From NCBI GenBank assembly GCA_003599255.1, contig QZJF01000012.1, forward strand, positions 1-51,901: a stretch of 51,901 nucleotides of DNA, in the 5' to 3' direction. The position numbers and the translations under genes were made by a program. Positions 6,744 through 51,901 of the stretch are shown piece by piece. Position 1 is the first letter of the stretch, and each line of letters begins with the position of its first letter. The notes under the pieces were generated by a model. That model saw nothing but the letters and a program-made list of their open reading frames with translations, had not been told where the DNA came from and did not search any database. The stretch is from a candidate division WWE3 bacterium (GTDB lineage: Bacteria > Patescibacteriota > WWE3 > UBA101185 > UBA10185).

Positions 6744-6764
6744 ACTGCCTATATGATTTAGGTT

Positions 6765-7160
6765 ATGACACACAAAAATATGACTATAATGGTTATAGAG
6801 GATGAGGAGCTACTACTTAACGCCATTACAAAGAAACTGGAAGTAAGCGGAATAAAGCCTATGGCTTATCTTGACGCTGATACAGCTTTGGCGTATCTCA
6901 TGGATGAGAGCAACATTCCCCCGCATGCAATATGGCTTGATTATCATTTAAAAGGTACAGATGGTCTCGAATTCACTAAGAAAGTAAAAGAGTCACCACG
7001 TTTAAAGAGCATCCCAATAGTTGTAGTGAGCAATTCGGCAAACGATGAGACCGTAAAAAACGTTTTGTCACTTGGTATAGATAAGTATCTTCTTAAAGCG
7101 GAACACAGATTGGACGATATAATAAAAGTTATTGAAAGTATTTTGGAGACCAATAAATAG
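6765..7160 (+). CDS. Stand-alone response regulator receiver
   Basis: VIEDEE, IWLD (phospho-Asp), VVSN, YLLK; no output domain. Confidence 0.9.
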   Translation: MTHKNMTIMVIEDEELLLNAITKKLEVSGIKPMAYLDADTALAYLMDESNIPPHAIWLDYHLKGTDGLEFTKKVKESPRLKSIPIVVVSNSANDETVKNVLSLGIDKYLLKAEHRLDDIIKVIESILETNK

Positions 7161-8956: not shown

Positions 8957-9032
8957 CGGGGTGTGGCTCAGTTGGTAGAGTGCACGGTTTGGGACCGTGA
9001 GGCCGCCGGTTCGAGTCCGGCCACCCCGACCA
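8957..9032 (+). tRNA. tRNA-Pro(TGG)
   Basis: Acceptor stem CGGGGTG/CACCCCG, anticodon arm CACGG-TTTGGGA-CCGTG, GGTTCGAGTCC, CCA. Confidence 0.95.
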
Positions 9033-10625: not shown

Positions 10626-10643
10626 TTAATTTATAATTAAATT

Positions 10644-11078
10644 ATGGATGACAATAAAAGAGAACAGAAATGTATTTTGGTCGTAGAAGATGACCCTGAC
10701 TTCGTAAAAATAATCACAGAAAAACTGGAAAAAAACAATATAAGAGTAGTAAATGCAAAAACGGCAGATGAGAGTATGGAACTTCTAAAAAATAATCACG
10801 TTGATTTAATTTGGCTGGATCATTATTTGGTAGGTGATAAGACCGGTTACGATTTTGTAACATCAGTAAAGAATGACTCAAAGTACAGAAAAATTCCAAT
10901 ATTTTTGGTCACAAATTACGATGATTACGGAAACACGGTTGTTTTTATGGAAAAACTGGAACATGAAGAAAATCCAAAAACATATGTAGAATTTGGAATA
11001 GATAAGTACTTTGTAAAGTCCAACAGCAGTCTTGATACAATCCTTGAAGAGGTTAAGAAATACTTGAAAATTGAGTAA
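10644..11078 (+). CDS. Stand-alone response regulator receiver
   Basis: LVVEDD, LIWLD, LVTN, YFVK; no output domain. Confidence 0.9.
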   Translation: MDDNKREQKCILVVEDDPDFVKIITEKLEKNNIRVVNAKTADESMELLKNNHVDLIWLDHYLVGDKTGYDFVTSVKNDSKYRKIPIFLVTNYDDYGNTVVFMEKLEHEENPKTYVEFGIDKYFVKSNSSLDTILEEVKKYLKIE

Positions 11079-13037: not shown

Positions 13038-13122
13038 GGGCGAGTGGCGGAATTGGCATACGCGTATGGCTTAGAACCATATGCCGCAAGGCTTGGAGGT
13101 TCGAGTCCTCTCTCGCCCACCA
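13038..13122 (+). tRNA. tRNA-Leu(TAG)
   Basis: Acceptor stem GGGCGAG/CTCGCCC, anticodon arm TATGG-CTTAGAA-CCATA, variable arm GCC-GCAA-GGC, CCA. Confidence 0.95.
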
Positions 13123-13595: not shown

Positions 13596-14171
13596 TTATT
13601 TCTTTTCAAAATCCTCCCGCGTAAGCTCGCGCGGGGCTTTTCCTGGGTCACCATCCTGCAAGATAGTCCTCCAGTTGCCTAAATGATCTCTCAATTTTTC
13701 ATTCAAAATGTCCTTGGCTTCTTCAATATTTTTTGGCTGGTCTCTTTCCTGGGAGGATTCTACAAAGATGCCGGTTATGTGGTGTCGAACCCGTGCTCCG
13801 GAACTAACTTTGTTTACATTTTGTCCGCCGGCACCGCCTGACCTAAAAGTTTCAACTTTTAAATCCGATTCATCTATATCAACCTCGCCAGTTTGCAAGC
13901 ACAAATTTACCCAGGCAATGTAATCTCCCAAACATTGTTCAGTCTCTTGAGGGGATTTGCCTCTGACTAAGTTTTCAACTACTCCGGCAACTGCATTTAT
14001 TGATTCTTCATGTCTATTGCGCATTGCCTCTTCTTTATGACGATTTCTCGCCGCTTGTGATGTTTTACTTGTGGGACTACGTTCTTTCTTTTTCCCACCA
14101 CTGCCACCACCGGTCTTTCCGGGAAATAATTCGTCTTCTATTCCGTAGTAATCTTCTGGGTTTAGTGTCAT
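13596..14171 (-). CDS. Peptide chain release factor-like (GGQ, RF-1 domain) protein
   Basis: DLKVETFRSGGAGGQNVNKVSSGARVRH...ERDQPKN. Start uncertain (ATG 14171 preferred; ORF open to 14273). Confidence 0.85.
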   Translation of the reverse strand: MTLNPEDYYGIEDELFPGKTGGGSGGKKKERSPTSKTSQAARNRHKEEAMRNRHEESINAVAGVVENLVRGKSPQETEQCLGDYIAWVNLCLQTGEVDIDESDLKVETFRSGGAGGQNVNKVSSGARVRHHITGIFVESSQERDQPKNIEEAKDILNEKLRDHLGNWRTILQDGDPGKAPRELTREDFEKK

Positions 14172-14202
14172 CTTTTTTGTGTGAGTAAGGAAACTCCCGG
14201 TT

Positions 14203-14361
14203 TTAACTTCCTGAAGTTTCCTTAATTTCATCCGCTTCTGCGGTCTTGGCTGATTCATTGGGCGATTCCTCACTTTTTACAAGAGAAAGAGCCCATTCAA
14301 GCAAGTCCGACATAGCGGAAAGCAATAAACGCGGTGCAGTACTCCGATTGCGGTTATCCAT
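14203..14361 (-). CDS. Small 52-aa ORF, not in the ORF track
   Basis: MDNRNRSTAPRLLLSAMSDLLEWALSLVKSEESPNESAKTAEADEIKETSGS; its ATG overlaps the upstream stop (ATGGATAA). Confidence 0.4.
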   Translation of the reverse strand: MDNRNRSTAPRLLLSAMSDLLEWALSLVKSEESPNESAKTAEADEIKETSGS

Positions 14362-19083: not shown

Positions 19084-19551
19084 TCACGGACACAAGTTAT
19101 CTGAGGGCACGGCAGAAGAATCGCATTCACGTATCTGACCCCATGCCGTTCTATATTTATAGTCTCTGTTATCACTGGCGTTAACCGTAATACCAATGGT
19201 CCTTCGAGCCGCATCAACCCAATAGGTATAAATTGCGCCCGCTGGCTCGTTGTTTGGCCAAACATCTACAAGATATGTGTTTATTACTGGATCGTCCTCG
19301 GGATTACCGTCACTATTTGGATCCAATGGGTACAAATTCTCGGTAGTCCTGTATGTCTCTACCACGTCTACCAGTTTTTGAAGGGTAGCACGTCTTACAG
19401 AGTCATCTGTACGAAGCCGGTGTCTTTGATAGTTGATGATAGAAGCGGTAGCCCCACTTAGTATGGCAATGACCATAGCCGTTATAAGTAGCTCAATCAT
19501 TGTGAAGCCGGAATTATACTTTTTTGATGTATGAAGGAATCTTTGATACAT
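19084..19551 (-). CDS. Type IV pilin-like protein (orphan)
   Basis: Prepilin cleavage motif G|FTMIELL followed by a hydrophobic helix. Confidence 0.88.
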   Translation of the reverse strand: MYQRFLHTSKKYNSGFTMIELLITAMVIAILSGATASIINYQRHRLRTDDSVRRATLQKLVDVVETYRTTENLYPLDPNSDGNPEDDPVINTYLVDVWPNNEPAGAIYTYWVDAARRTIGITVNASDNRDYKYRTAWGQIRECDSSAVPSDNLCP

Positions 19552-21527: not shown

Positions 21528-21604
21528 GGGCTCCTAGCTCAGCCGGTTAGAGCGCTTCAGTGACATTGAAGAGGTCACAGGTTCGAGTCCTGTGGAGCCC
21601 ACCA
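21528..21604 (+). tRNA. tRNA-Val(GAC)
   Basis: Acceptor stem GGGCTCC/GGAGCCC, anticodon arm CTTCA-GTGACAT-TGAAG, GGTTCGAGTCC, CCA. Confidence 0.93.
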
Positions 21605-38224: not shown

Positions 38225-38888
38225 TGTAATTACACTCTTTCCAAACCTTTTTCAAGAACACCTAAACAATCTTCCTTTTAAAAAAGCTATAAACTCCGGA
38301 TTATTGAAAGTGAACCTCATAAACCTCAGAGATTATGCCCTTGATGATTACGGCACAGTTGATGATAAGCCGTATGGAGGCGGCACAGGGATGCTATTAA
38401 TGATTGAACCTGTTTATAAAGCACTTACTGACATCTACGGAGAAAATTTTGAGAAACAATCAGACAAAAAAAGAATTATTGCACTTTCTCCAAGAGGAAA
38501 CACCTATTCACAATCAAAAGCTGCGGAACTTTCCAGAGAAACTAGAATTACATTCATTTGCGGGAGATATGAGGGTATGGATGCAAGGATAGAGGAAGAA
38601 TTAGCAACAGAAGCCATTTCCATAGGAAATTATGTCGTCTCAGGAGGTGAACTTCCATGCCTTGTTATCATGGAATCCCTCACAAGACTACTACCTGGAG
38701 TTTTGGAAAAAGATGATGCTGCCGAGAATGAATCTTTTTCGAATGGGAATTATGAGCATCCGCAGTACACTAGGCCTGAAGAATTCAGAGGAATGAAAGT
38801 TCCGGGTGTTCTTTTGTCGGGGGATCACAAGAAGATTGATGATTGGAAAAATGAAAACAAGGGACCAATTCTGCCTATTCTAGGTTAG
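38211..38888 (+). CDS. trmD: tRNA (guanine37-N1)-methyltransferase
   Basis: VDDKPYGGGTGM, CGRYEG, SIGNYVVSGGE, PQYTRP. Confidence 0.97.
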   Translation: MITIDVITLFPNLFQEHLNNLPFKKAINSGLLKVNLINLRDYALDDYGTVDDKPYGGGTGMLLMIEPVYKALTDIYGENFEKQSDKKRIIALSPRGNTYSQSKAAELSRETRITFICGRYEGMDARIEEELATEAISIGNYVVSGGELPCLVIMESLTRLLPGVLEKDDAAENESFSNGNYEHPQYTRPEEFRGMKVPGVLLSGDHKKIDDWKNENKGPILPILG

Positions 38889-39720
38889 CTGGTTCTTCGA
38901 CTGGAACTTCTTCACCCGATTCATCGCCAAAAACACTCACAACTTCTTCGCCTTCCTCGCTGGGTGTCGATTCCTCAACCTCAGGCTCAAAAGGCACAAT
39001 AGGAAGATCGTCTACATTTACATCTTCAATATTCGAATAATCATAATAACGTAAGTTCTTAACTCTATTAATGAAAGAGATAAAATTATCACTTGCGATA
39101 TCCAAAGTTACAGGATCATCCGTAATGGCGGATGATTGAACCATCAAATAAGGAGAATAAACGGAAAAATTCAAGGAAAGAGTATTATTGTCACCAATTT
39201 CTGCAAATCTAAAATTTGCAACATTTATGAGACGGGCAGCAGTCTCGGCCGATTTCATAAAGGTTACCATTTGTTCATATGTACCTTCCGCCCCTAATGA
39301 GATAACAACAATATTATACGAGCCGCTTTGTTCTTCTTCGGAAGGTACCTCACCAAAAGTGTAGCTAAGTTTAGTAACATCAAGTCCTGAGTTTCTGGCT
39401 ATAGTATCAACTTGATCCAACAGCGCGGGAACAAACTCCTCGGAGGGGAGAGCCCTGTCTACTAACAGCGAATTCTCATCCACCACACTCTTAAAATCTA
39501 CTAATTTGTATATATTTTCTTTTTTAGCAGCTAGGGTATCCCTCAAAGCTCTTTTTGATTCAAGATCGCTCTGAAGTTGCGGTACTCTCGATACAGACGG
39601 GTATATTATCAAAAAGAAAAGTATTGCAGAAATAGTTAAGCAAACAATAGGAACAAGAAAATTAACAAACGCGTTTCTAATTCTGGAAGTATCTATGTTT
39701 ACGTTTCCTTTAAGATTCAT
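38875..39720 (-). CDS. pilO: Type IV pilus assembly protein PilO-like
   Basis: TM plus coiled coil; ALP...LLDQV...GL, GTYEQMVTFM...RLINV; third gene in M-N-O order. Confidence 0.8.
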   Translation of the reverse strand: MNLKGNVNIDTSRIRNAFVNFLVPIVCLTISAILFFLIIYPSVSRVPQLQSDLESKRALRDTLAAKKENIYKLVDFKSVVDENSLLVDRALPSEEFVPALLDQVDTIARNSGLDVTKLSYTFGEVPSEEEQSGSYNIVVISLGAEGTYEQMVTFMKSAETAARLINVANFRFAEIGDNNTLSLNFSVYSPYLMVQSSAITDDPVTLDIASDNFISFINRVKNLRYYDYSNIEDVNVDDLPIVPFEPEVEESTPSEEGEEVVSVFGDESGEEVPVEEPANLE

Positions 39721-39721
39721 T

Positions 39722-40303
39722 CTATTTGTTCTTTATCATTTCCAAATTTATATCTACGGTTATTGCAAATCTGACCAAACCCTTGGACTTCTCAAGGTTT
39801 ACCGAATTTAGAGAAACTGATGTAAACATTCCTCTCAGCTGCGGATTACCGCCCTGAAATTCTGGTGATAGTAGATTGTTCATGAAATTCGAAATAAGAA
39901 TATAGTTATTTGCCACACCTGATAAGCTGATCTTGGTTCCCTTTTGAAGGGTAAAGCTATCGATGAGGATACCTTCTGGCGTCCTGGCACGAAGCTCCTC
40001 AGCTAACATAGAATAATTACCCCTTGAGGCAAAAATCTCGTTAAGAACCTTGTATTTACTATCAAGATTTCTTGCACTGATTTCAACAGGGGCTAGTGAG
40101 TTAATTTCAGCACGAAGTTTTTCTACTTCAGAATCCAAATCATCTATTGACCCACTTAGTGTAGTTGTTTGGTAAAAAAAGTAGCCACCGATACCTCCGA
40201 CAATTATTAAAATAAGAATCGAAACGACAGTGCTAAGTTTTACAACTTTAGTTTTTGTCTGCTCCTGTACTTCTTGTTGAGGTATTAAGTTAATACTTTG
40301 CAT
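39722..40303 (-). CDS. pilN: Type IV pilus assembly protein PilN-like
   Basis: INLIP N-terminal motif, TM, coiled coil. Confidence 0.85.
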   Translation of the reverse strand: MQSINLIPQQEVQEQTKTKVVKLSTVVSILILIIVGGIGGYFFYQTTTLSGSIDDLDSEVEKLRAEINSLAPVEISARNLDSKYKVLNEIFASRGNYSMLAEELRARTPEGILIDSFTLQKGTKISLSGVANNYILISNFMNNLLSPEFQGGNPQLRGMFTSVSLNSVNLEKSKGLVRFAITVDINLEMIKNK

Positions 40304-40304
40304 C

Positions 40305-41336
40305 CTATACTTCCTTTAGTGCAAGTCCATACGCCGACGAAAATATCGGGCCTTGCTCCAGTAAAGACGGATTTTTCTGCTGTGCTTTGGGACCTAATAT
40401 GAGATCTCTAAACGGGTTTGCCACCTCGACTTCCAGGTCGAGATTGCTTGCCATATACAATAATAGTCCCGGCATCTGAGCAGCTCCGCCGGTTAAAATT
40501 ACCCTTTTAATGTTAGCATTAGGCTGTTGCTTTGTGAAGAAAATACTTGCGCGTTTGACCTCCTCAATCATACTGTCAATATGGGGTTTTACAACATCGT
40601 ATATTTTTCCGTCTACCTGATTCTTATCCATACCATAAACTTTTTTGTATTCTTCGGCCTGATTATAATCAAGATTAAGGCTTTGCTGAATTGATCTGGT
40701 CATGACATCCCCTCCAATTTGAACATTTCTAGTAAATCTTACGAAACCTCCGTATGTAATGATGATTATCGACCTGGAATAACCCATATCCAAAATGACA
40801 GACCCTGACGGTGCCTCTTTTGTGTCTCCCAGAGCTCTTCCCAACGCGAGAGTTTCCGGCTCTATTGCTTTTGGAATAAGATGCGCACGTTTGATAATAT
40901 CTACATGTTTCTCGAGAGTATTTTTTCTGGCGGCAACCATCTGCACATTCATTTTGGCTTTATCCGCATAATCAACGTCAAGTTTCTGAAATGATAAATT
41001 TACTTCGTTTAGTGGAAGGGGGATATATTGCTCAGCCTCGTAATTGACAGCGTTTCGTAAATCTTTATCACTCATTTGAGGAAACTTAATTATTCTCATG
41101 TATATGTAAGTCTCGTCCAGACCGACGACTACATAAGGCGTGGAAAAACCAACTTCTGCAAAAAAATCCTTTAATGAATTGGCATATATTTCTCTATCGT
41201 CTGTAGACTCGGATTCAAAGTTAAGCTTGGGATTCTCATAGACTGCATATCTGTTGACTGTAAGTCCTTCTTTTTTTCTCTCTAGCTCTATAGCTCTAAA
41301 GTTATTTTTTCCTAAATCCAATCCAACAATGGGCAT
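40305..41336 (-). CDS. pilM: Type IV pilus assembly protein PilM
   Basis: VGLDLG, EAEQYIP, ILDMG, ILTGGAA, VANPF, AYGLALK. Confidence 0.93.
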   Translation of the reverse strand: MPIVGLDLGKNNFRAIELERKKEGLTVNRYAVYENPKLNFESESTDDREIYANSLKDFFAEVGFSTPYVVVGLDETYIYMRIIKFPQMSDKDLRNAVNYEAEQYIPLPLNEVNLSFQKLDVDYADKAKMNVQMVAARKNTLEKHVDIIKRAHLIPKAIEPETLALGRALGDTKEAPSGSVILDMGYSRSIIIITYGGFVRFTRNVQIGGDVMTRSIQQSLNLDYNQAEEYKKVYGMDKNQVDGKIYDVVKPHIDSMIEEVKRASIFFTKQQPNANIKRVILTGGAAQMPGLLLYMASNLDLEVEVANPFRDLILGPKAQQKNPSLLEQGPIFSSAYGLALKEV

Positions 41337-41359
41337 AAATAAATGTTACCTTAGATAAG

Positions 41360-42184
41360 CTAATTAGACAATGCATCAGTGTCCGACTTTTGGTAGATAA
41401 CGTAGTCAAATATGGCCGGAACAAACGGATCAGATTTAATAACAGTTACGGTTTTTCTTGCCTCACCTACCTGGCCAACTGAGTCAATCCTGATACCTTG
41501 TGCGGGAATTGTATAGCCGGGTGCAGGGAGTACATCCACGTCCACCGGCGCATATGCTGATTTTAATCGAATCGACAACGGTGTATCACTTGCTGTTAAC
41601 GTAAAGCAATTCTGATATCCATAAAGTGATGAGGCTGTCAGGAAGTTATTTTCAGGATGTGCGGAGGTGGTTGAGTTATACGCAAAAGGTTCGGCATTAG
41701 TAGCACCACTTACGGTTTTAATATACATTCCTGTTACAGACTGCTCTCCGTTCCAACATACACTTATACCTTGACCGGATGTATACCCAACAAGAGATAA
41801 CTCCGTGGTCTCAGATTCTCTGAGTGACAGGGGATATGGATCAGAGGATGCCCCCATATGACTCAACGTAACGTTTGCAATAAGCTTCTGACCATTAACA
41901 TCAGTAATTTCCAGGTAGCAGCTCGTCCCGCAGTTATTAAATGTAATAAAATCTTCTAATGTTTCTGTTGGTAAAACTAAGAGCCTTTCTATAGCCGCTT
42001 CCGCTACTGCTACGGCTTTTGTAGTATTATCCGAGGATGTAATTGCCCTTAAACCTTTTATAAATCTATCCGATACAGTTACTCCCACCATCAATGCAAT
42101 AATCATTAACACAATCATCGCAAGCACTGTCTGACCCTTTTGATTTCGAAAAAGATCCTTTGTTTTTAACTCTAGTGACAACAT
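41360..42184 (-). CDS. PilX-like minor pilin
   Basis: KG|QTVL (no Glu5), AVAVAEAAIE, C-terminal PAIFDYVIY. Confidence 0.75.
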   Translation of the reverse strand: MLSLELKTKDLFRNQKGQTVLAMIVLMIIALMVGVTVSDRFIKGLRAITSSDNTTKAVAVAEAAIERLLVLPTETLEDFITFNNCGTSCYLEITDVNGQKLIANVTLSHMGASSDPYPLSLRESETTELSLVGYTSGQGISVCWNGEQSVTGMYIKTVSGATNAEPFAYNSTTSAHPENNFLTASSLYGYQNCFTLTASDTPLSIRLKSAYAPVDVDVLPAPGYTIPAQGIRIDSVGQVGEARKTVTVIKSDPFVPAIFDYVIYQKSDTDALSN

Positions 42185-42188
42185 ATTC

Positions 42189-42731
42189 CTAATAAGAATT
42201 TCTGATAACTATAGTATTTATAATTTGAACTTCACCCTCAAATGTGGGACTGGGTGTAGCCTGCGCCTGTCTGAAAACAAGTGCTATATCAACAACCTGC
42301 GGAGTACCGGTAGTAACTATAAAGCAAGTAGGGTTGCATGCCATGTGTACTCCGCCCACGGTTTGACCAACCAATGGAGTAGCAACAAGAGCATTAGCAT
42401 TACTCGTAGACCAAACACATGCACCGGTGGTAGTTGTACGATATATATTGTTGTTGGCGACGTTGTAACATATTGTGATATTTGTAGAAGGATCTTCAAA
42501 GCTTATCCGCGTCCCGCCGTTTGTTACCACAACGTTTGATGCATTCCTCAACTCTTTTTCCAACTTTAACCCCAAAAAGTTGGCCTGCTGTTCTAATTCG
42601 TTAATCAATGTGGATTTGTTAAAGCTTCGTACAAGTGAAACTAAAATATCCCCGGTTACTCCAACAGATATAGAAACAAGAGCTATAACAAGAAGTAGTT
42701 CTATTAAGGTAAAACCGGAATTTCTCTTCAT
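42189..42731 (-). CDS. Minor pilin, PilW/GspJ-like
   Basis: G|FTLIELL; LEKELRNA. Confidence 0.8.
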   Translation of the reverse strand: MKRNSGFTLIELLLVIALVSISVGVTGDILVSLVRSFNKSTLINELEQQANFLGLKLEKELRNASNVVVTNGGTRISFEDPSTNITICYNVANNNIYRTTTTGACVWSTSNANALVATPLVGQTVGGVHMACNPTCFIVTTGTPQVVDIALVFRQAQATPSPTFEGEVQIINTIVIRNSY

Positions 42732-43258
42732 TTGCCCCTCCAGTTGGAAAGATCAGTATACACATTGGTCATCTTAGCTTGTGTACCTACATCCCAGGTT
42801 ACTGTCACATAAACTCTGACTATATTAGTAGGGTCGTTAGCGTCCGGGACTATGCTGAACCAATGAGTCACGTTCTGCCCATCGATATTTTCTACCCGCG
42901 CGCCTGCATTTACCTGCACAGGATTAGAAGTCATATTGCATTGTTTTGTACAGGGTGCCGCTGCACAAGTACAATCATAGTCACTCACTAAGGGGTCGTT
43001 ATCAGTAATATCCAATGTGTCCATAAAAACCAGCCAGGAAACGTTCTCGTCGTCTCTGAACGCCCTTACCAATTCTGATTCACGATTTGCAATTTTTGTC
43101 GCCTCAAGTAGTAACTTGCTTTGCAAAGAAGACCTTAGTGTGTAGAGTGAAAGAGACACTAACGCAGTAATTACAACCATTGATATGCCAAACGCGGCTA
43201 TAACTTCAACTAACCCTATACCTTTTTGATTGAGCATCGATTTTTTGGTTAAGTACAT
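42728..43258 (-). CDS. Minor pilin, PilV/GspI-like
   Basis: KG|IGLVEVI; C-terminal VYVTVTW. Confidence 0.78.
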   Translation of the reverse strand: MYLTKKSMLNQKGIGLVEVIAAFGISMVVITALVSLSLYTLRSSLQSKLLLEATKIANRESELVRAFRDDENVSWLVFMDTLDITDNDPLVSDYDCTCAAAPCTKQCNMTSNPVQVNAGARVENIDGQNVTHWFSIVPDANDPTNIVRVYVTVTWDVGTQAKMTNVYTDLSNWRGK

Positions 43259-43830
43259 AGCAATGATGAATTTGTATAAATCAGGCCACGAGTATTAAAC
43301 AGGATTCTTCGGCAATCTCCACTTGTTGTACTGCCGACATAACCTACAATAAGCTGTGTTCCTGGAAAATTAACTGTATTTATACTCCCATCCCTTATGC
43401 TGAAATACATACACCTGAATCCGCCCGTCACCTTTATTTCTAAAGTATTCTGGATTTCCGAATGTCCTTGAGCCTGTGCGACAGGTATGGGGTCAGGACA
43501 AGTTGTATTGGTATCCGATATGAAGAACTCGTACCTGTTGCTACCGGTACCTGCTCCGGAGTTAAACCTGATTCCCCAATATTCCACTGGGTTCGGTCCA
43601 ATAGTAGTGTCTGATAGAGTGCCTGTCAGTGCTTTATTTTGGATATTTCTCATATCACTTTTAAGCTGCTCTTGGGCCTGTTTGACATTTTGATTTCTGA
43701 TATAACCTGCAAAAGAGGGGATAAGTGCACCTGTCACCAGGACAATTATTGTAACGACCACCAGTAATTCTACAAGCGTAAAACCCGATGTCTTAACTGG
43801 AATACATTTAAGGGCAGAACTGCGTCGCAT
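43249..43830 (-). CDS. Minor pilin, FimT/GspH-like
   Basis: G|FTLVELL; LKSDMRNIQNKAL; ILFNTRGLI. Confidence 0.8.
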   Translation of the reverse strand: MRRSSALKCIPVKTSGFTLVELLVVVTIIVLVTGALIPSFAGYIRNQNVKQAQEQLKSDMRNIQNKALTGTLSDTTIGPNPVEYWGIRFNSGAGTGSNRYEFFISDTNTTCPDPIPVAQAQGHSEIQNTLEIKVTGGFRCMYFSIRDGSINTVNFPGTQLIVGYVGSTTSGDCRRILFNTRGLIYTNSSLLCT

Positions 43831-43848
43831 AAAATAATATTAACACAA

Positions 43849-44361
43849 TCAAGGAGAAATTAGACTAAGATTAGTGCCTACTTCATACGTTCCTGTGTCA
43901 TCCCCACCGTCGTTTGACATTTCAGAAACTGCAAGTTCCATTTTCACATTTAATTCATAGGTTTCACCGTTATGAACATAAGAATAATGGTAATTTGCAT
44001 CATTTATTGGGTCCAACGGCAAGAATGTTGAATAGTTTCTTAGATCCTGTTCAATCCAACCGGACTGCGAATTGTCCGGAGATATGGTACTCGCTGAGGG
44101 GAGCTCGTGACTATTTCTAAGGGTGTCTGGAGCATCAGGATAACCTCCAGTATCCAAATGGTATTCCGTAATTATTCTCTCCAAAACAAATATATCGTTA
44201 ATCCGTTTATTGTCTCTTGCCCTAGCTCTGCCCTCCAGAGGATTATAGACTAATAGAGTTACTGTTAATAATATTGCAGCTATCGCCATCACCAGCATTA
44301 ACTCAACATAAGTAAAACCTTTTGACTTACTTCTCATATTAGAGGGGATTCTCAACGCCAT
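43849..44361 (-). CDS. Pilin, GspG-like
   Basis: G|FTYVELM; RARDNKRINDI; YP; LPLDP. Confidence 0.85.
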   Translation of the reverse strand: MALRIPSNMRSKSKGFTYVELMLVMAIAAILLTVTLLVYNPLEGRARARDNKRINDIFVLERIITEYHLDTGGYPDAPDTLRNSHELPSASTISPDNSQSGWIEQDLRNYSTFLPLDPINDANYHYSYVHNGETYELNVKMELAVSEMSNDGGDDTGTYEVGTNLSLISP

Positions 44362-44893
44362 AACAGGGAGTTCCGCAGTTACACCCGGTAACGTTTCCGC
44401 TGGTGCAATTTGACAAAGAGTTGCACAGACTCTGGGCAGCAGATGTCTGTGTTTCCATAAGAGTTATTAAAACATATCTGGATGATAAACAACCGGCACC
44501 TACACATGTATTAGTGCGGTAATAATAGCCATACGTTGTCATTCCGCAAGTTGCGGCGCCGATATTTTCATTGTTTCTTGGATCAATTGGTATAACTTGA
44601 ACGTACGTGCCTTGCAAGGGTGTGGCTAATATTCCCGGTGTTCTGCTCCAACTGGCAGAATTCTGGGGATACCCTCTGTTATCTGCAAAGTACAATTCCA
44701 AGGCAGTTTGAATTCTTTTTAAATCTCCGGATCTTTGAGCATCTCTAGACCTAGCCCGTATTCCGGCAACATTGATAACACTCAGAACAAGACCGCTTAA
44801 GACACCAATTATAATTACTACCAATAGCAGTTCTATTAATGTAAAACCGGATTGTTTTGTTTTTTTCATCCTTGCTATTTTAGGTTCAATCAT
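44339..44893 (-). CDS. Pilin, GspG-like with Cys-rich C-terminus
   Basis: G|FTLIELL; RSRDAQRSGDLKRIQTALELY; IPIDP. Confidence 0.87.
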   Translation of the reverse strand: MIEPKIARMKKTKQSGFTLIELLLVVIIIGVLSGLVLSVINVAGIRARSRDAQRSGDLKRIQTALELYFADNRGYPQNSASWSRTPGILATPLQGTYVQVIPIDPRNNENIGAATCGMTTYGYYYRTNTCVGAGCLSSRYVLITLMETQTSAAQSLCNSLSNCTSGNVTGCNCGTPCYGVENPL

Positions 44894-44903
44894 ATAAAAA
44901 ATA

Positions 44904-46448
44904 TTACTGTGTGACTAAAGTTGTTACTCTTATGGAGGCGGTATCAAATTGATTGTTATACGACGCGGTAACCGTTACTAATCCGGGAGAGACTCCCTGT
45001 ACAGTACCGTCGCTTCTCACATTTACCGCCCCACCCAATCTTGAAGGTGCTGCGAGCCATGTGGCTTGGTTTGTTACATCTATGGTCAGCCCATTGCTGT
45101 AAACTGCTAGCGCCCTTAATTGCACTATTTCCCCAATTCCTATTGTGGCTGAGGAAGGCGTTACGGTCAAAGAAGTAATGGAAGGGGTAACAATTGATTG
45201 CACAGTGATAATAGAACTATTGGAAAATCCTCCGTACGACGCAAAGACCCGGGCAGTACCGCTTGCCAATGCAGTAACCATACCCTGGCTATCAACCGAA
45301 ACAATATTACCGAGCTGTTGCACCGTCCAAGAAGCATAATTTGTAACTATTCGAAGAGAACTGTCCGAATATGTTGCAACCGCAGTTAGCTGCTGTCTTT
45401 GGCCAACATCAAGTGTTGCCGATGTAGGACTGACTGTTAAACCGGTCATTGTTGCACTTGAAGCATTAACCGTCAGAGACGCACTTGCATTATAACCTCC
45501 GAATGATGCCCTGACCGATGCGGTACCTGCGTTCTGTGCTGTAACTAAACCGGTACTATTAACGGAAGCAACATTCGTTCCGCTTATGTATAGGACCGTC
45601 CAGGTCGCTGATGAGTTTACATTCGAAGTAGAACCATCCGAGTATGTCGCAGTGGCTGTATATTGTTGCGTGCTTCCAACTGTCAAAGTAGTAGAAGTAG
45701 GAGCTAAAGAAAGTGATGTTACAGTTGGCGCTACAGCGGTTACTGCAACGGGAATAGTCGCGCTCAAACCGCTGAAAGAGGCGGTCACAGTTGTATTTCC
45801 GGCACCGGTCGCGGTAATCAAGCCTGACGATGAAATTGTAACTACCCCTGAAACAGAAGATGTATAAGATGCAGATGAGGCGACGTTTACAGTTGCTCCG
45901 TCAGAATATGTTGCAGTAACAGTTAACTGTTGAGTATTACCAACCTGAAGCGAAATGGGTGAGGGAGTAGCCGTCAGAGACACTACGCTTGGTGCGGTCC
46001 CTCCCGGCGTAACACAAACATCAATAACATCTATATTAGTAGCATCACAGTGAAAAGCGCCATCCCACGCTGTACTGAATTTTCTAAAATTTTGATCAGA
46101 TTGCTGCACATAAGCAGCAAATGCATCATTAACAGGATCAACTCGATATTCCACACCGGTCGGCCAACTTACGATATATTCGTCTAAATTAGGATCTGAG
46201 GGAATGCCCCCGCTTTCAGCAGGGTAATAGCCTTCAATAGCCTCAAAAGCTTCTATTGCTTGATTTGCCTGTTCTAATTGGGACAACCTTACGGCATCGG
46301 CTGCCCTTTCCCTCTGTGTCTGCTGGTTGATTGTTGTAATAACTACACCGGCCAAAATACCAATTACGGTTACCGACAGCAAAATCTCCACCAAAGTAAA
46401 TCCGCGTTCGATGATAGAATTTTTTTTTGAATTTATATGCCGATTCAT
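44904..46448 (-). CDS. Modular pilin with four Big_2 (bacterial Ig-like) repeats
   Basis: G|FTLVEIL; four units of about 85-90 aa matching L...P....L.VG..QQL.A.ATYSD....V...A.W...GLVTA...G...V.AS. Confidence 0.88.
   Translation of the reverse strand: MNRHINSKKNSIIERGFTLVEILLSVTVIGILAGVVITTINQQTQRERAADAVRLSQLEQANQAIEAFEAIEGYYPAESGGIPSDPNLDEYIVSWPTGVEYRVDPVNDAFAAYVQQSDQNFRKFSTAWDGAFHCDATNIDVIDVCVTPGGTAPSVVSLTATPSPISLQVGNTQQLTVTATYSDGATVNVASSASYTSSVSGVVTISSSGLITATGAGNTTVTASFSGLSATIPVAVTAVAPTVTSLSLAPTSTTLTVGSTQQYTATATYSDGSTSNVNSSATWTVLYISGTNVASVNSTGLVTAQNAGTASVRASFGGYNASASLTVNASSATMTGLTVSPTSATLDVGQRQQLTAVATYSDSSLRIVTNYASWTVQQLGNIVSVDSQGMVTALASGTARVFASYGGFSNSSIITVQSIVTPSITSLTVTPSSATIGIGEIVQLRALAVYSNGLTIDVTNQATWLAAPSRLGGAVNVRSDGTVQGVSPGLVTVTASYNNQFDTASIRVTTLVTQ
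44910..45990 (-). repeat. Four diverged tandem Ig-like domain repeats (protein level)
   Basis: Recurring ATYSDG/ATYSDG/ATYSDS/AVYSNG and ASFSG/ASFGG/ASYGG/ASYNN; boundaries approximate. Confidence 0.8.
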
Positions 46449-46471
46449 TTAAAAAACACTTCGATCTGCAA

Positions 46472-46495
46472 AGGCCCCGCCTGTTGGTGGGGCCT
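46472..46495 (-). terminator. GC-rich hairpin after the putative major pilin (leaky terminator or stabiliser)
   Basis: AGGCCCC...GGGGCCT stem with only a short U tract. Confidence 0.55.
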
Positions 46496-46512
46496 GAGAG
46501 ATGAAGTTATTA

Positions 46513-47199
46513 TTACAATCTGGTACAAAGTGCATCCCCAGCAGGTGCGGCAACCGAAGGTGCCGTCGTAATGTTGTTGTACTGATATGCCGGAGTTGCA
46601 GGGTTATCACACCCGTAAAAACCCTCATTTACAGTCCCGTTAGCGGCTTCCCAGTAGTTATAGACAAATGTGGTGGTTGGATTAGCTGAACCGTGTACTG
46701 CTACTCTTAGAAATGTAGCACCGTCGGTAAAGTAAGCAAACTGGCATGCTGCCGTATCTGAACCCGCGTCGTCCCCGGTCCACGTAGATGTAGCATCGCA
46801 GTTGCTTTGCATATTTACACCGTTTATAACGAATGTACAGGGTGTAGCCATAGCACCTGGAGTCGCACCGGTACAGTTATGTACCCCTATGCTACCAATA
46901 CCAGCTGCAAACTCTGCAGGAGTAGGAGCTCTGTTAGTATTTCTTGGCGACGAAACCCAGAGTCCTTTAGTAGCTAATGCCATTTTATCCAATTGCGACC
47001 TGAGGTTAGCGTCTCTAGCCCTGTTTTGTTGCTGCACAGGATTCAAAACACCGATAACGACACCGGCTAAAATACCGATAATAACGATGACTATCAAAAG
47101 CTCTACAAGTGTAAAACCGGCTGAACTCTTTGACGAAGCAAAACTAACCTGCGAGAAAGTAGAGTTGGGGGTTAGTTTTTTGATTAAACTATTTCTCAC
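46513..47199 (-). CDS. Type IV pilin, probable major pilin
   Basis: G|FTLVELLIVIVIIGILA; own promoter, purine-rich SD-like GGAGAGGGGGTG and a 3' hairpin. Confidence 0.85.
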   Translation of the reverse strand: MRNSLIKKLTPNSTFSQVSFASSKSSAGFTLVELLIVIVIIGILAGVVIGVLNPVQQQNRARDANLRSQLDKMALATKGLWVSSPRNTNRAPTPAEFAAGIGSIGVHNCTGATPGAMATPCTFVINGVNMQSNCDATSTWTGDDAGSDTAACQFAYFTDGATFLRVAVHGSANPTTTFVYNYWEAANGTVNEGFYGCDNPATPAYQYNNITTAPSVAAPAGDALCTRL

Positions 47200-47354: not shown

Positions 47355-48284
47355 TTAATCAATATCGCCGTCAGAATAAACCGCGTAATCAAAAATTGAG
47401 GGCATGTATGGGAACGATCTGTAAACTTGTATTCTTTTAGTAACTCGGATACCGCTGTCATCGGATATCTCTCCGGTTGATTCGATTAGGAAACCTTGAA
47501 GAGGGAAGTTATTTGAAGTTGCGGGGAAAATTCCCACTTTTGATGGGGCGTATAATGATTTCAATCTTAGTCCGGTCCTATTTGTATTTATATTTATTCT
47601 GTAGCACTGGTCAAAATCGAGTCTTCCTGCGCCTGCGTTCACATCTCCACCGACATCATAAGTCCCTACCGGAAAAGTAGGGGAGGCAACACCTTTTGAA
47701 ACCACACCGCCCGAGGAGTAAGTTGCAAAATAAATCCCGCTCGATTGCGAAGCTTCTAAGGATCTCCAGCATATGTCGATATTACCTTGATAGTAAACAT
47801 TGTTAGCAATATTAACGAGCCTTACTTCCTTTACATCTCCCGGATCCAAGTTAAACCAATAATGATCATTTGCCCCGTCTTGGAAGTTCCAGGTGAACGT
47901 ACTTATACGAACTGAGGCCTGCGCGTTTATGCTGTCGCCACTTTGACCGGGATATTCAAGAATGCATGCACTGTTATCCGTAGGGTGAGGAAGAGTGCCA
48001 CAAGGACATTCCGAGTTTGTAGCGGGACAGTTGACCCCGTTATTAACATCACCATCAGACAATTCCATCAAGACATCCGTTGGTTGGCGCAAAAACCATT
48101 CGATACCTCCCTCAGCAGTTGCAAAGACCCTAGTGGACGTATCAGTACTTGTTGTTCTCCTGAGCGAAGTAAGAGTTCTGGAAGAAACTGCTATGCCAAT
48201 GGCAAGAGCAACACTCATGGCAACTACTATGAATAGTAAAGCCTGTCCACTGGAATTGTTGTAATTAATAAATTTATTTTTCAT
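47355..48284 (-). CDS. PilX-like minor pilin, paralog of 41360..42184
   Basis: SG|QALL, FATAEGGIE, PSIFDYAVY; start ATG 48284 follows the upstream stop. Confidence 0.75.
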   Translation of the reverse strand: MKNKFINYNNSSGQALLFIVVAMSVALAIGIAVSSRTLTSLRRTTSTDTSTRVFATAEGGIEWFLRQPTDVLMELSDGDVNNGVNCPATNSECPCGTLPHPTDNSACILEYPGQSGDSINAQASVRISTFTWNFQDGANDHYWFNLDPGDVKEVRLVNIANNVYYQGNIDICWRSLEASQSSGIYFATYSSGGVVSKGVASPTFPVGTYDVGGDVNAGAGRLDFDQCYRININTNRTGLRLKSLYAPSKVGIFPATSNNFPLQGFLIESTGEISDDSGIRVTKRIQVYRSFPYMPSIFDYAVYSDGDID

Positions 48285-48288
48285 ATTT

Positions 48289-51200
48289 TTACGGCTCCGA
48301 ATAAACCCACTGAACATCATAAGTTGCCAACCCTGTGAAATTATAGCTTCCGGTGTTTGTAACTTCATATCTGGTAAGCCAGTAAACCATCCTGCTGTAG
48401 TACCTTATCATCTCTGCAGGGAAGCTGTAGTTGTTTAAGAACCCAAGGTTTCTGTCAAAATTAATTATTGAACGGGAAAGTACCGGCCCGGTAATTACGA
48501 CAGGCATATCAAAAGTCTGTGTTGGCCAGTCATATACAGATGGGAATTCTACATTCGAGGAAGTTACTATTCCCATGTGAATCTGGGGAGCCGATGATAC
48601 CGAGTATGTCGCTAAACTTGGAACTGCTACAGACGCATCAACATTCACCGGCGACTCGGTTACCACCAAAATTATTCTGTTCTGAGCTCCGCAGTTACCG
48701 CAGGTAAAACTATTGTTTATATTAATATCTCCGCCACCCGTAACATAAACTACCGCCACACCGGTAACATTTCCCCCCATCAGATAGCTTCCGCCAGTTA
48801 GAAGGGTATTGAAATCACTCACTGTGATGTTATAGACACTTCCGGTTTGGAATACATTCCCGCCGGGAACTCCCGTAGTGGCTGAAGCAGGAGGTTCAAA
48901 CCCAAAGTTATTAAACCAATCATCTTCGAAATCATGTATACCTGTAACATTCAGCTGCTGTCCAAAACCCCCGCTTTCACTGACTCCGCTACCAACTCTT
49001 TGCGGATCTATAACCGTACCAGCAAATCCGAATCCGCCAATTGCGGTATTTGTCTGAGTGTTAATGAAGTTTGAAGTAAAGTTATCGCCGGGATCCGTTG
49101 TGATATCAGCTACTACACCGGATGAATAAAAATCACCGTCAAGGAATGTGAACCATTTTTCGTTGTCAAATCCCAAATATAACAAATCGATATTTATATC
49201 ACTGGCATCAAGGGCATTTGTGGGAGTACAGTTTACGGCACATGCACCGGAACCGGCCGTACAAGTCACACCTGTACCGTTAACACACTGAAGTACATAA
49301 CCTTTAGTGCCGTCGCCCAGAATCCCATTTATACAAATTGAATCGAAAATAGTGCTTCTAAACAACGGTGTAATACTGAACGAGTCACCGGAAACCGTGC
49401 CTGTCGGGAGCAGGGGAGTAGCTCCATTAAAGATTTGTGCTATCGGATTCAGGGTATTATTAATCGAAATCAATGAACCACAGGTCGGGTATCCGGTCTG
49501 AGTTTCATAAGTGTGTCCTGTAATGGTTCTCGCGACACCGATCAGACTACCGGTACAAACAGGACCGTTGTAATAAGGAAGGGGTACATTCTGATTTAAT
49601 GTAATATCACAGGAACCTGGTGCTGCCGGACCTCTCCACATCATCGGGAAACGTAAAGCCCCTCCATAGTACATCATAACGTGATCTGTCTTAAATGTAT
49701 CATTAGGATCATTTACTACCGTATAGGGATCTGTACCGTCATTATTCCTTCCATCAAAATAAGTACCTGTATCATAATAAACTCTTCGTGTTACATCTGT
49801 TCCATCATGTGGCTGGAATGCATATAAAATATCATTTGGAGGTGCAAGATTATTTCGGACCTCCACATTATAAATTTTCACGTTCCTATCTTCGGTAGCA
49901 TTAGATGCATCATTAATAAATGCAACCTCTACCATGGTAATAGAGCGTCCGGCAGCAAGATTAAATGTATAAGTAAAAGTATCCGGGTCAGAATTAATCT
50001 CGCCAATCGTACTCGCCAAACGTTGCCCTAAATCGGTGGTTGCGTAAACTCTGATATCCGGCCAATCTCCAAGACCATAAACCCCACCTGCAGTTACTTC
50101 AACTGTCACGGCCCCTGTTAACGGGAAATCCCCACAAGTAACATCGTAGTCATAATCTACACGGGCACCGTTGGGATGTTTAGCGTTGGAACTAAAGGTC
50201 ATTAGCTGGTTAGCAGCAATAAATTCAGTAGGCCAGTTCTGAAAAGGAGCACATGCCGGTAACTCAACGCCTCTCGTAACGGTTTCATCTTGATACCCAT
50301 CGGTCCAGGTAGGATCGCAGTCTGCCCAATCAGTAACTATACCTTGATTAACTTGAGGATTCCCGTTGCACCTATTTGATACTCCCGGTGTAACGTTAGC
50401 GTACTCGTCCTGGGCTGTAGAATAATATACCGAGTAGCCGGCAGGTACTGCACTTGAATAAGTTGCGGAACAAGTAGTGCCTGAGCAGGAATTATTAACA
50501 CCGACTGATGTAAACGGATCCGAGACTACACGTGTGGTTGGATTAAAAGGTCTCATTCCGATTCCGACCGAAGTCAAATTAGCTCTTGTATCTGTGGCAC
50601 TTGCAGTAAAACTCTGACTTGAACCAGTTATATAGTAATTTACCGGTTGACCATTGACTGTTGTAGTATGCCCAACTTGAGGAACTGAAGTAATTGTTGC
50701 CAAAGGAGGTCTGTTTTTTTCCCAACGCATATGTAAATGATTTGACCAGTCTTCTCCATTGTCGTTGCCGATTGTAATCGAATTGACAACACACGTAGTA
50801 CCGCTGGAGTTAGCCGTATTTGTACACCCCAAATTTGTACACCTGGAGAATGTCCATGATGCATAAGCACACGGAAACAAAGTAGTGTCGTTGCTGGGAG
50901 GAACAAAAGAATGGGGTCCGACGGTCCTTAAAGTCCCGGGTGCGCCATTAAGGTCATAGTCCCATGACCAGTAATATGCTTGAGCGGGCCATGAGTTACA
51001 CTCCCAGCCTCCCACAATACTGGTGCCGCTGCCATTCAGGAAATCTATCGAACCATTTACCAGCGGAGCGCATGTGTTACCGGGTGCAACATTATCAGAC
51101 ATTACCTCTGTATATCCTGAATAAGTATTGTCGCTGTTCAGGTCTTCCCAAACTCTTCCGACAATTCTTGAGCATGAGTCAACAGTAAAACCCCAAGTTG

Positions 51201-51901
51201 GGGAGTCAGTAGTTCGGGCACCATTGCTCGCCTTTATATACCATGTGTGTGAGGTGTTCCAGCTGCCTGTGTAATCATATGAAGTTACCGAATCGCTCAC
51301 TGATGCTACTTCGGCGCCATCCACATACACCTTATATGTGTTCGTGTTGCCTCCGCAATTAGTGCCCCATGAACTTACCGCATTCCAATCAAGAGTTATC
51401 GTATTTGAGGTAAAACATGTGGTAGTGTCGGGAGGAGAAACCAAAACAGGGGCCGCCGGATTCGAATCGCTGCATCCGTTTTTATTATGCGCATATACCT
51501 TATTGGCAAAGTAAGTATGTTCGTCCCCGTCCAAAATCAGATTATAGGTTTGAAGACCTTGCTCAACATAGGTATACCCAAGGATTTGGCTCCAGGTGCG
51601 ATCTTCTCTCAATAGGTAATCTCCCTTTTTTATTAAAGCCACCTGTATACCACTATCTAAATATGCCATTTCAGGCGAAAAGGCCCCCCAACCGGAATAT
51701 GTATCATTTTTGAAAAATAAAGGGTGCTCACTGGTCACGTCAAGAACAGTCTGATCATCCAACGTGACCTTGTAATAACCTTGTCTTAACGGGTTTTCCA
51801 CTTCCATAATCGAAGAGGATGAATAACCTCCATCAACTCCGAAAGTTCTAACGCGTTCTCCAACTTTTACGTCCTCTATTCTCTTGCTAGAGCCATCAGC
51901 C
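48289..51901 (-). CDS. Large pilus-locus surface protein/adhesin with an internal Hint domain; 5' end outside the window
   Basis: Frame open to the window edge (ADGSSKRIEDVKVGERV); VTSEHP; TYNL...HTYFANKVYAHN; then FN3/Ig-like and CBM-like modules. Confidence 0.85.
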   Translation of the reverse strand, partial: ADGSSKRIEDVKVGERVRTFGVDGGYSSSSIMEVENPLRQGYYKVTLDDQTVLDVTSEHPLFFKNDTYSGWGAFSPEMAYLDSGIQVALIKKGDYLLREDRTWSQILGYTYVEQGLQTYNLILDGDEHTYFANKVYAHNKNGCSDSNPAAPVLVSPPDTTTCFTSNTITLDWNAVSSWGTNCGGNTNTYKVYVDGAEVASVSDSVTSYDYTGSWNTSHTWYIKASNGARTTDSPTWGFTVDSCSRIVGRVWEDLNSDNTYSGYTEVMSDNVAPGNTCAPLVNGSIDFLNGSGTSIVGGWECNSWPAQAYYWSWDYDLNGAPGTLRTVGPHSFVPPSNDTTLFPCAYASWTFSRCTNLGCTNTANSSGTTCVVNSITIGNDNGEDWSNHLHMRWEKNRPPLATITSVPQVGHTTTVNGQPVNYYITGSSQSFTASATDTRANLTSVGIGMRPFNPTTRVVSDPFTSVGVNNSCSGTTCSATYSSAVPAGYSVYYSTAQDEYANVTPGVSNRCNGNPQVNQGIVTDWADCDPTWTDGYQDETVTRGVELPACAPFQNWPTEFIAANQLMTFSSNAKHPNGARVDYDYDVTCGDFPLTGAVTVEVTAGGVYGLGDWPDIRVYATTDLGQRLASTIGEINSDPDTFTYTFNLAAGRSITMVEVAFINDASNATEDRNVKIYNVEVRNNLAPPNDILYAFQPHDGTDVTRRVYYDTGTYFDGRNNDGTDPYTVVNDPNDTFKTDHVMMYYGGALRFPMMWRGPAAPGSCDITLNQNVPLPYYNGPVCTGSLIGVARTITGHTYETQTGYPTCGSLISINNTLNPIAQIFNGATPLLPTGTVSGDSFSITPLFRSTIFDSICINGILGDGTKGYVLQCVNGTGVTCTAGSGACAVNCTPTNALDASDINIDLLYLGFDNEKWFTFLDGDFYSSGVVADITTDPGDNFTSNFINTQTNTAIGGFGFAGTVIDPQRVGSGVSESGGFGQQLNVTGIHDFEDDWFNNFGFEPPASATTGVPGGNVFQTGSVYNITVSDFNTLLTGGSYLMGGNVTGVAVVYVTGGGDININNSFTCGNCGAQNRIILVVTESPVNVDASVAVPSLATYSVSSAPQIHMGIVTSSNVEFPSVYDWPTQTFDMPVVITGPVLSRSIINFDRNLGFLNNYSFPAEMIRYYSRMVYWLTRYEVTNTGSYNFTGLATYDVQWVYSEP

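Follow-up and report, generated by a model that had tools for sequence, protein, structure and literature searches.

The locus examined here raises the question of what an intein-like domain does in the surface protein that heads a pilus operon. The window, that is, the whole stretch of DNA that was analysed, is an entire contig of 51,901 bases (QZJF01000012.1, assembly GCA_003599255.1) from a candidate division WWE3 bacterium, and the protein in question is encoded by a minus-strand open reading frame (ORF) that runs off its end. As far as it is contained in the window, this protein starts within a Hint domain that ends in His-Asn, followed by Lys, and continues into a body of 1064 residues. 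The reading preferred here, held with slightly more confidence than doubt, is that the Hint domain is inserted in a secreted modular adhesin that processes itself after export, with either cleavage or ligation as the outcome, and that the body of the adhesin is borne on the pilus. The features of the ORF on which the argument draws are the following.

48289..51900, minus strand: adhesin ORF, 1203 codons, 5′ end open at the contig end, no stop before the edge
51484..51900, minus strand: Hint domain of the putative type A bacterial-intein-like (BIL) kind, positions 11-149 of about 149, from a search of profile A2 against the PDB
51724..51735, minus strand: block B motif Thr56-Ser-Glu-His59 (TxxH), with T56 and H59 invariant in alignment A2
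51484..51489, minus strand: His138-Asn139, predicted C-terminal splice or cleavage junction (Asn cyclisation site), invariant in A2; Asn codon at 51486-51484
51481..51483, minus strand: Lys140, the +1 residue and start of the C-terminal part, from the ORF translation
51181..51474, minus strand: Ig/FN3-like β-sandwich module, residues 143-240; Ig_RIMBP2 at 20.8 bits, under the cut-off of 27
49531..51180, minus strand: variable middle region, residues 241-790, which aligns only with the relative P0023 and a few others
49837..50103, minus strand: CBM60-like stretch, 27.1 bits against a Pfam cut-off of 28.2
48292..49530, minus strand: conserved C-terminal region, whose match ends near the C-terminus in family proteins
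48295..48975, minus strand: family-defining core domain, residues 976-1202, by hidden Markov model match; β-sandwich and β-solenoid-like fold in the model

The Hint domain and its +1 lysine

The first 139 residues of the ORF correspond to the last 139 of a domain of about 149 and begin at domain position 11, so that ten residues, Cys1 among them, are lost at the contig end. Taken by itself, the fragment gives only sub-threshold Pfam matches, to PT-HINT (17.4 bits, cut-off 27.7), Hint (16.6 bits, cut-off 29.7) and Hom_end_hint (13.7 bits, cut-off 32.1), and its best match in the PDB, covering residues 1-139, has an E value of 0.008. A homologue search aligns it with Hint domains of three proteins (P0003, P0004 and P0005). 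The complete domain of P0003, which shares 48% identity with the fragment, scores 31.8 bits and exceeds the Pfam Hint cut-off of 29.7, and P0004 and P0005 score 58.8 and 65.4 bits. An alignment of six sequences, the window fragment included (A2, 149 positions), was searched as a profile against all PDB sequences and recovers 34 distinct ones at E ≤ 0.01, all of them Hint-fold or AXH. The best match, a full-length one, is to BIL2 from the BUBL1 locus of Tetrahymena (6y75 and 6tmm, identified through PMC8616854; E value of 4.6e-16), with a ‘bacterial intein-like domain’ next (2lwy, E value of 1.5e-12) and, in third place, the HINT of UmbC1 (8w20, identified through PMC11062931; E value of 1.9e-12). 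True mini-inteins appear only from about 2e-7, behind the BIL domains. Membership of the fragment in the HINT superfamily, which the sequence-only reading had proposed on the letters alone, is confirmed at the level of sequence by these relatives and by the profile, and not by the fragment's own Pfam scores.

The details of that proposal bear scrutiny as well. The peptide that it quoted matches the ORF translation letter for letter; the His-Asn end that it placed at about 51484 is His138-Asn139 at 51489-51484; and the residue after Asn, given there as Lys, is read as Lys140 at 51483-51481. The fragment aligns to the 149-position profile without a large insert, and a domain of only about 149 residues leaves no space for a homing endonuclease, in agreement with the absence that had been claimed. 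T56, H59, H138 and N139 are all invariant in A2, and a role of the block B Thr/His pair in the N-S acyl shift is established intein chemistry (PMC4031507). By every feature examined (TxxH, terminal His-Asn, non-nucleophilic +1 residue and mini size), the Hint domain classifies as a type A BIL, a known class, and the label ‘intein-like’ is thereby upheld.

The lysine that follows the terminal Asn is not peculiar to this locus. Searched among longer proteins, profile A2 matches 238 proteins at E ≤ 1e-10. Of the 238, 120 were listed. The clade counts given from here on rest on 121 proteins, with 15 near-copies (P0007-P0020 and P0002) removed beforehand, and these proteins contain 229 complete domains. 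Among the 229, 228 have Cys1 and 215 the His-Asn terminus, a near-invariance that argues, as far as sequence can, for an active domain. In the 214 domains that run from Cys1 to His-Asn, Lys stands at +1 in 167 cases and Arg in 8, with Cys, Ser or Thr together accounting for 15; after clustering at 50% identity, the +1 residue is Lys in the majority of members in 47 of the 65 clusters and Arg in 7. Lys at +1 dominates across the clade, and Lys140 is therefore a trait of the clade rather than an accident of the window copy. Where source names are given, the clade members come mostly from uncultivated bacteria and archaea, the archaea including Thermoplasmata, Woesearchaeota and Aenigmatarchaeota. 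The literature searched showed nothing that links Hint or intein-like domains with pilins or with the candidate phyla radiation (CPR); the original BIL papers lie outside it, so that Lys at +1 is not claimed here as unreported.

Two further arrangements within the clade deserve mention. Many of its proteins (P0172, P0005, P0004 and P0188 among them) carry tandem arrays of complete Hint domains joined by linkers of 1-3 residues; P0172 has seven complete domains with linkers KGG, KGA, K, KC and RS, the largest array numbers eight, and a second Hint follows within 8 residues downstream in 96 of the 229 domains. Separately, P0255 and P0260 resemble type IV pilins in sequence and combine a prepilin N_methyl motif with a Cys-rich segment, a Hint near the C-terminus, Ala at +1 and a 22-residue tail, a layout that resembles that of Hedgehog on a pilin. 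Kinship of these two fusions with the window locus was considered and rejected, only the N-terminal helix being common to them and the window pilins (E ≥ 0.003).

An insertion in a family of probable secreted adhesins

The ORF extends past the window edge, as had been read, with its 5′ end open on the minus strand. An internal ATG at 51807 would start an ORF of 1172 residues; residues 1-31, which lie 5′ of it, align with the N-terminal part of the relatives' Hint domains, and the true gene must therefore extend past the contig end instead of starting at that ATG. The database copy of the protein (P0002, 1204 residues) ends at the identical point, and a scan of genome contigs for the missing upstream part returned only a spurious 14-residue match on a Planctomycetota contig. 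Its probable make-up can be judged from relatives. The Hint and the window protein's C-terminal domain occur together in five complete proteins (P0003, P0137, P0215, P0263 and P0277). Each of the five begins with a signal peptide and an N-terminal flank, 63-132 residues long and containing 6-18 Cys, before a Hint running from Cys1 to His-Asn, and then Lys. The same order of signal peptide, Cys-rich module, Cys1 to His-Asn and body is found in all eight complete relatives examined, with Lys at +1 in seven and Ser in one. By analogy, what the window protein has lost at its N-terminus would be a signal peptide of the Sec type, then 60-130 residues of Cys-rich module, then the opening ten residues of the Hint, Cys1 included. 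The protein is then probably short of some 75-145 residues and would measure about 1300 residues in full; complete proteins of matching architecture span 690-1357 residues, and the description ‘giant’ in the sequence-only reading finds no support in them.

The body was characterized by searching the 1064-residue part after Asn139 against 1.84 billion representatives, which gave 160 matches at E ≤ 0.001, the best 150 of which were listed. When 154 matches were re-scored, the C-terminal domain was found in 85, with the match ending 0-28 residues from the protein C-terminus in all 85, and the Ig/FN3-like module that directly follows the Hint in the window protein recurs in 81. Of the family members with an N-terminal signal-like segment, 49 of 54 have at least six Cys within residues 26-110, where the Cys fraction is 0.117 compared with 0.025 elsewhere. 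Their middle regions carry Ig, PKD, TSP1 and CarboxypepD_reg domains by Pfam. Six of the 54 N-complete members (P0003, P0029, P0031, P0053, P0056 and P0073) share a sharply conserved motif, CCxGxGCPx[WY]xC, within their Cys-rich N-terminal module.

With its Ig-like module, sub-threshold CBM60 match and β-rich C-terminal domain, the 1064-residue body looks, from its sequence and model, like an adhesin rather than a toxin, as the sequence-only reading had judged. No toxin or enzyme family is found in it in Pfam or NCBIfam: Pfam yields only the sub-threshold CBM60 and Ig_RIMBP2 matches, and an NCBIfam scan of the adhesin yields no family. CBM60 is a Ca-dependent xylan-binding module, and the CBM60-like stretch may be a sign that glycans are bound. 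For the last 453 residues, an AlphaFold2 model built from an alignment is confident, with a predicted local distance difference test (pLDDT) of 83.5 and a predicted template modelling score of 0.79, and shows β-sandwich and β-solenoid-like parts. Foldseek finds no match for the C-terminal domain model at E ≤ 0.001 in PDB or BFVD, the one weak recurring lead being to ice-binding/DUF3494 β-helices (target-normalised TM-score of about 0.4), and phmmer finds no match to the whole C-terminal part in the PDB at E ≤ 1. DUF7305 (PF23981) has no match in the window protein and weak ones in 4 of 42 family members (best E value of 0.0011), with an Atlas neighbour score of 0.84.

Comparison with the closest body relative defines the place of the Hint within this family. 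The first 93 residues of P0023, a protein of 1229 residues, consist of signal peptide, Cys-rich module and Pro/Thr linker and contain no Hint. Residues 94-1228 of P0023 align with residues 143-1200 of the window protein (P0001; E value of 2e-149), the homology beginning at the Ig/FN3-like module. This end-to-end alignment indicates that the Hint, together with ‘KNG’, has been inserted cleanly at the point where the Cys-rich module meets the body. The sequence-only reading had proposed looking for the Hint in related loci, and there it proves to be present, though rarely: only 6 of 106 proteins bearing the C-terminal domain have one, and a Pfam scan of 41 family members (of the 85 then known) gave no Hint family match. 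In a quick maximum-likelihood tree built on the C-terminal domain (92 rows), the rows with a Hint, six in number, are scattered and require six changes, of which well-supported branches force at least five. A single Hint clade is rejected by the approximately unbiased test (p value of 7.9e-6), in which the six were set against 28 of the 46 Hint-less full-length rows, picked to span the tree. The Hints of the window protein, P0003, P0215 and P0137 are nevertheless mutual nearest relatives (41-58% identity). Scattered rows with mutually close Hints imply that the module has been gained repeatedly, exchanged, or lost many times within the family. A foreign origin of the Hint segment was sought in its base composition and is not supported, the guanine-plus-cytosine fraction of 0.417 being no anomaly against 0.401 ± 0.041 in windows of 417 nucleotides.

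The pilus operon and a predicted docking partner

The adhesin gene heads an operon in which it is followed by a gene for a 309-residue protein and then by seven ORFs with a prepilin N_methyl motif, six above the Pfam cut-off and one below. The parts of this operon are as follows.

47355..48284, minus strand: next gene, 309 residues, pilin-like hydrophobic N-terminus; ATG 4 nucleotides after the adhesin stop, GGAG about 10 nucleotides upstream
38875..47199, minus strand: rest of the operon, with the seven prepilin-motif ORFs, a second PilX_N-like protein, PilM, PilN and PilO
44904-46448, minus strand: 514-residue pilin-like protein, prepilin motif and four Big_2 Ig-like domains (94.7 bits)
42728-43258, minus strand: the prepilin-motif ORF below cut-off, N_methyl at 16.3 bits against 21.2
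41360-42184, minus strand: second protein with a PilX_N-like hydrophobic N-terminus (274 residues), after the prepilin-motif ORFs

The product of the next gene had been called a PilX-like pilin rather than an immunity protein. Its pilin-like character stands and nothing marks it as an immunity gene; the name PilX is less secure. Pfam at E ≤ 10 gives neither PilX_N nor another meaningful family for the 309-residue and 274-residue proteins. The nearest Atlas clusters of the former are hypothetical proteins of CPR bacteria (scores of 0.97-0.98), and the label rests only on one of these neighbours, a cluster with PilX_N in 13% of its members. The two proteins share a hydrophobic N-terminus, GQ(A/T)(L/V)L..., and lack the Gly-Phe-Thr-Leu-x-Glu prepilin motif. 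The 514-residue protein is unusually large for a pilin and may be a further candidate adhesive subunit.

A structural link between the adhesin and the pilus is suggested by complex prediction. Residues 900-1203, comprising the C-terminal domain and supplied with their own alignment, were paired with the soluble part of the 309-residue protein, which gave a docking score of 0.89 (runs of 0.89, 0.90 and 0.88), compared with 0.24 for the best of three controls. This mark is reached by 116 of 157 solved complexes and by 2 of 215 mismatched pairs, counts that are approximate here given the use of an own alignment. The runs agree in at least 84% of contacts, with a partner pLDDT of at least 72. In the predicted interface, the last 27 residues of the 309-residue protein (47358-47438) lie against residues 917-931, at the solenoid start, and residues 1138-1148 and 1165-1203 of the window protein. 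A result passed from the memory of the model is unlikely because the body has no solved relative by sequence. The C-terminal domain is thus predicted to clamp the tail of the pilin-like protein, and the model supports binding. Together with the operon of prepilin-motif ORFs, PilM, PilN and PilO, this lends support to the pilus association that had been read from the locus, and the adhesin is most likely, on the strength of the model, displayed on the type IV pilus of its own operon.

In being a large protein encoded with minor pilins and presumed to bind hosts, the window protein recalls the PilY1/PilC tip adhesins of type IVa pili, and it can be likened to the PilX1/PilX2 tip candidates described for Saccharibacteria (PMC11623550), its C-terminal domain being predicted to dock on a pilin-like partner. 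It differs from PilY1 in that it has neither a β-propeller nor a vWA domain, and carries a Hint; there is no Pfam PilY1 match, no PilY1 among the Foldseek matches listed, and the model is instead a β-sandwich with a β-solenoid-like part. Its relatives have a Sec-type and not a pilin-type N-terminus.

The remainder of the window bears on the identity of the organism. The named relatives of its threonyl-tRNA synthetase (64-73% identity) belong to Candidatus Shapirobacteria, Collierbacteria, the Microgenomates group and, in one case, Saccharimonadales, and on these sequence relatives the organism is an ultrasmall, Microgenomates-like bacterium of the CPR. Of the description ‘episymbiont’ in the sequence-only reading, the lineage is thereby borne out; the lifestyle is inferred from that lineage. 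The window also carries housekeeping genes. Six tRNA genes are present, three at the contig start (1-259, plus strand, the first cut by the contig end) and the others at 8957-9029, 13038-13119 and 21528-21601. On the plus strand, a PAS histidine kinase is twice paired with a single-domain response regulator, in adjacent pairs at 5346-7160 and 9141-11078. An ORF of 225 residues (13596-14273, minus strand) has an RF-1 domain (residues 130-196) as its sole Pfam match at E ≤ 1e-5; a complete class I release factor would be longer. A lone gene for a 155-residue protein with a prepilin motif (19084-19551, minus strand) lies about 19 kb from the pilus operon.

Possible release or ligation, and the meaning of the locus

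According to the preferred reading, the precursor would be exported through Sec, and the Hint would turn the peptide bond before Cys1 into a thioester. Succinimide formation at Asn139 would then cut the Asn139-Lys140 bond and give the 1064-residue body an N-terminal Lys. Two outcomes may follow. Hydrolysis of the thioester would leave three pieces; alternatively, the thioester would be recaptured by the freed amine of Lys140, so that the body gains the Cys-rich module in the manner of type A BIL splicing. The body would be shown on the pilus through the product of the 309-residue gene. The chemistry of these steps is inferred by analogy with the BIL class: type A BILs end in His-Asn with no +1 nucleophile, and splicing by aminolysis of the N-terminal thioester after Asn cyclisation is described as possible for them (PMC4031507). 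The freeing of the C-terminal part, which the sequence-only reading had put forward, is accordingly one of two chemically plausible outcomes and has a serious rival in re-ligation; with Lys at +1 conserved in the clade, amine-mediated re-ligation is as plausible as simple release.

The likeness to type A BILs, for example that of Clostridium thermocellum (2lwy), extends to the mini Hint of about 150 residues, the TxxH motif, the terminal His-Asn, the lack of a +1 nucleophile and of an endonuclease, Cys1 (as seen in the relatives of the window protein), and a secreted, variable host protein. The window clade departs from them in its conserved Lys at +1 (167 of 214 domains) and in its hosts, which are surface proteins of CPR bacteria and, by source names, of several archaeal lineages; the window Hint itself has an N-terminal placement, with a presumed Cys-rich module ahead of it and the body of a pilus-operon adhesin after it.

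The alternative that survives best takes splicing through an amine as the chief outcome: the Hint would be excised, the Cys-rich module would be joined to Lys140 through its α- or ε-amine, and the Hint would amount to a tolerated or regulatory insertion. This is a tentative reading, given well under even confidence. Hint-less relatives are continuous at exactly the insertion point, so that splicing would recreate their single chain, and the distribution of the Hint is sporadic and polyphyletic, as for inteins. Lys occupies +1 in 167 of 214 junctions and 47 of 65 clusters, against Cys, Ser or Thr in 15 of 214, a conservation that plain Asn cleavage does not obviously need. BIL2, encoded in the polyubiquitin-like BUBL1 locus of Tetrahymena thermophila and the best solved relative, forms an isopeptide with a Lys ε-amine, its chemistry ending in an amide to a lysine amine (PMC8616854). 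It differs from the window Hint in being eukaryotic and cytoplasmic, with ubiquitin-like flanks and an acceptor lysine that need not stand at +1 and belongs to the next domain or to a different protein. Contiguous Hint-less relatives, intein-like scatter, conserved Lys and the BIL2 isopeptide thus favour ligation, whereas published BIL behaviour favours cleavage: cleavage products dominate in vitro according to reviews (PMC4031507, PMC7664689), and among the BILs treated in the reviews consulted no assayed one has Lys at +1. Other causes may also account for the conserved Lys, among them the rate at which Asn cyclises or a site for some later protease.

Several points weigh against self-processing of a pilus-borne adhesin as the preferred reading has it. 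Cys1, the signal peptide and the N-terminal module of the window protein lie outside the window and are supplied from its relatives, and the window fragment by itself falls under every Pfam Hint cut-off. A single-sequence AlphaFold2 model of residues 1-190, at a pLDDT of 31.8, is too poor for comparison with the Hint fold. The docking is a prediction made with its own alignment, for which the calibration counts hold only roughly. Finally, in Hint-less relatives module and body form a single chain, and this speaks against a function in plain ‘release’.

Transfer in the manner of Hedgehog is improbable. Here an outside nucleophile, such as an amine or hydroxyl of the cell wall, a lipid, a pilin or the host surface, would attack the Cys1 thioester, so that the module becomes attached elsewhere and the body is released. 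The Hedgehog C-terminal autoprocessing domain shares the Hint fold and a Cys1 thioester that allows transfer of the N-terminal part to a nucleophile, and differs in having no terminal Asn cleavage, no large C-terminal part, and cholesterol as acceptor. A Cys-rich segment often stands directly before Cys1 (mean of 1.82 Cys in the 30 upstream residues compared with 0.64 expected; at least three Cys in 34 of 122), the pilin fusions P0255 and P0260 combine a near-C-terminal Hint with a 22-residue tail as in Hedgehog, and BIL2 is reported to conjugate its N-terminal flank to other proteins (PMC8616854). The idea is nevertheless speculative, with no evidence of any acceptor, and in Hint-less relatives the Cys-rich module is simply part of the chain. 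About as improbable is the view of the Hint as an inactive relic, a structural spacer without processing. In its favour, Cys1 of the window copy is unseen; against it, the clade keeps its catalytic positions, with Cys1 in 228 and His-Asn in 215 of 229 domains, and A2 shows no variation at T56 or H59.

The two remaining explanations fail on features that define them. That the Hint is the pre-toxin domain of a polymorphic toxin, freeing a C-terminal toxin that a downstream immunity protein neutralises, has in its favour the weak PT-HINT match of 17.4 bits and the third rank of UmbC1, a protein of Streptomyces umbrella particles whose PT-HINT likewise sits in a large secreted multidomain protein and is thought to cut off the C-terminal part. 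This reading is very unlikely: the PT-HINT score is under its cut-off, the 1064 residues after the Hint hold no toxin family in Pfam or NCBIfam, the same kind of adhesin-like body exists without a Hint in relatives, and the genes that follow are pilin-like, with no immunity gene among them. Least probable of all is a canonical mobile mini-intein with class 1 splicing, to which the Hint fold with block B, the terminal His-Asn and the sporadic occurrence in the host family could be fitted, since Lys140 stands at +1 in place of Cys, Ser or Thr (found at only 15 of 214 clade junctions), the host is an exported, fast-evolving surface protein and not a conserved enzyme site, and the nearest solved relatives are BILs (about 1e-16 to 1e-12) ahead of inteins (about 2e-7).

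As to novelty, the BIL class has been known for two decades, and the Hint domain of this locus is an instance of it, an interesting case rather than a new principle. What is new here is the host family, a CPR pilus-operon adhesin with a previously unnamed C-terminal docking domain, together with the insertion site and the clade-wide Lys at +1. A bolder and rather doubtful proposal is that the Hint domains with a His-Asn|Lys junction (at least 238 proteins at E ≤ 1e-10) make up a functional clade not described before, which would splice or ligate outside the cell through a lysine amine and not through a Cys, Ser or Thr side chain, and that in this operon the module is joined to the pilus-borne adhesin or transferred elsewhere. 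If true, lysine-amine ligation would be an ATP-free route by which surface adhesins are built or re-wired after export.

For locating and gripping their hosts, CPR bacteria rely on type IV pili (PMC11623550), whose adhesive parts are as yet little characterized. The locus provides a concrete candidate, namely a modular adhesin family with a conserved C-terminal domain that is predicted to ride on a PilX-like protein, and with a putative self-processing Hint in a few members. Were the Hint to cut, the adhesin could be shed or activated with no protease involved; were it to ligate through Lys, the known chemistry of protein splicing would be widened and a new tool for extracellular ligation gained.

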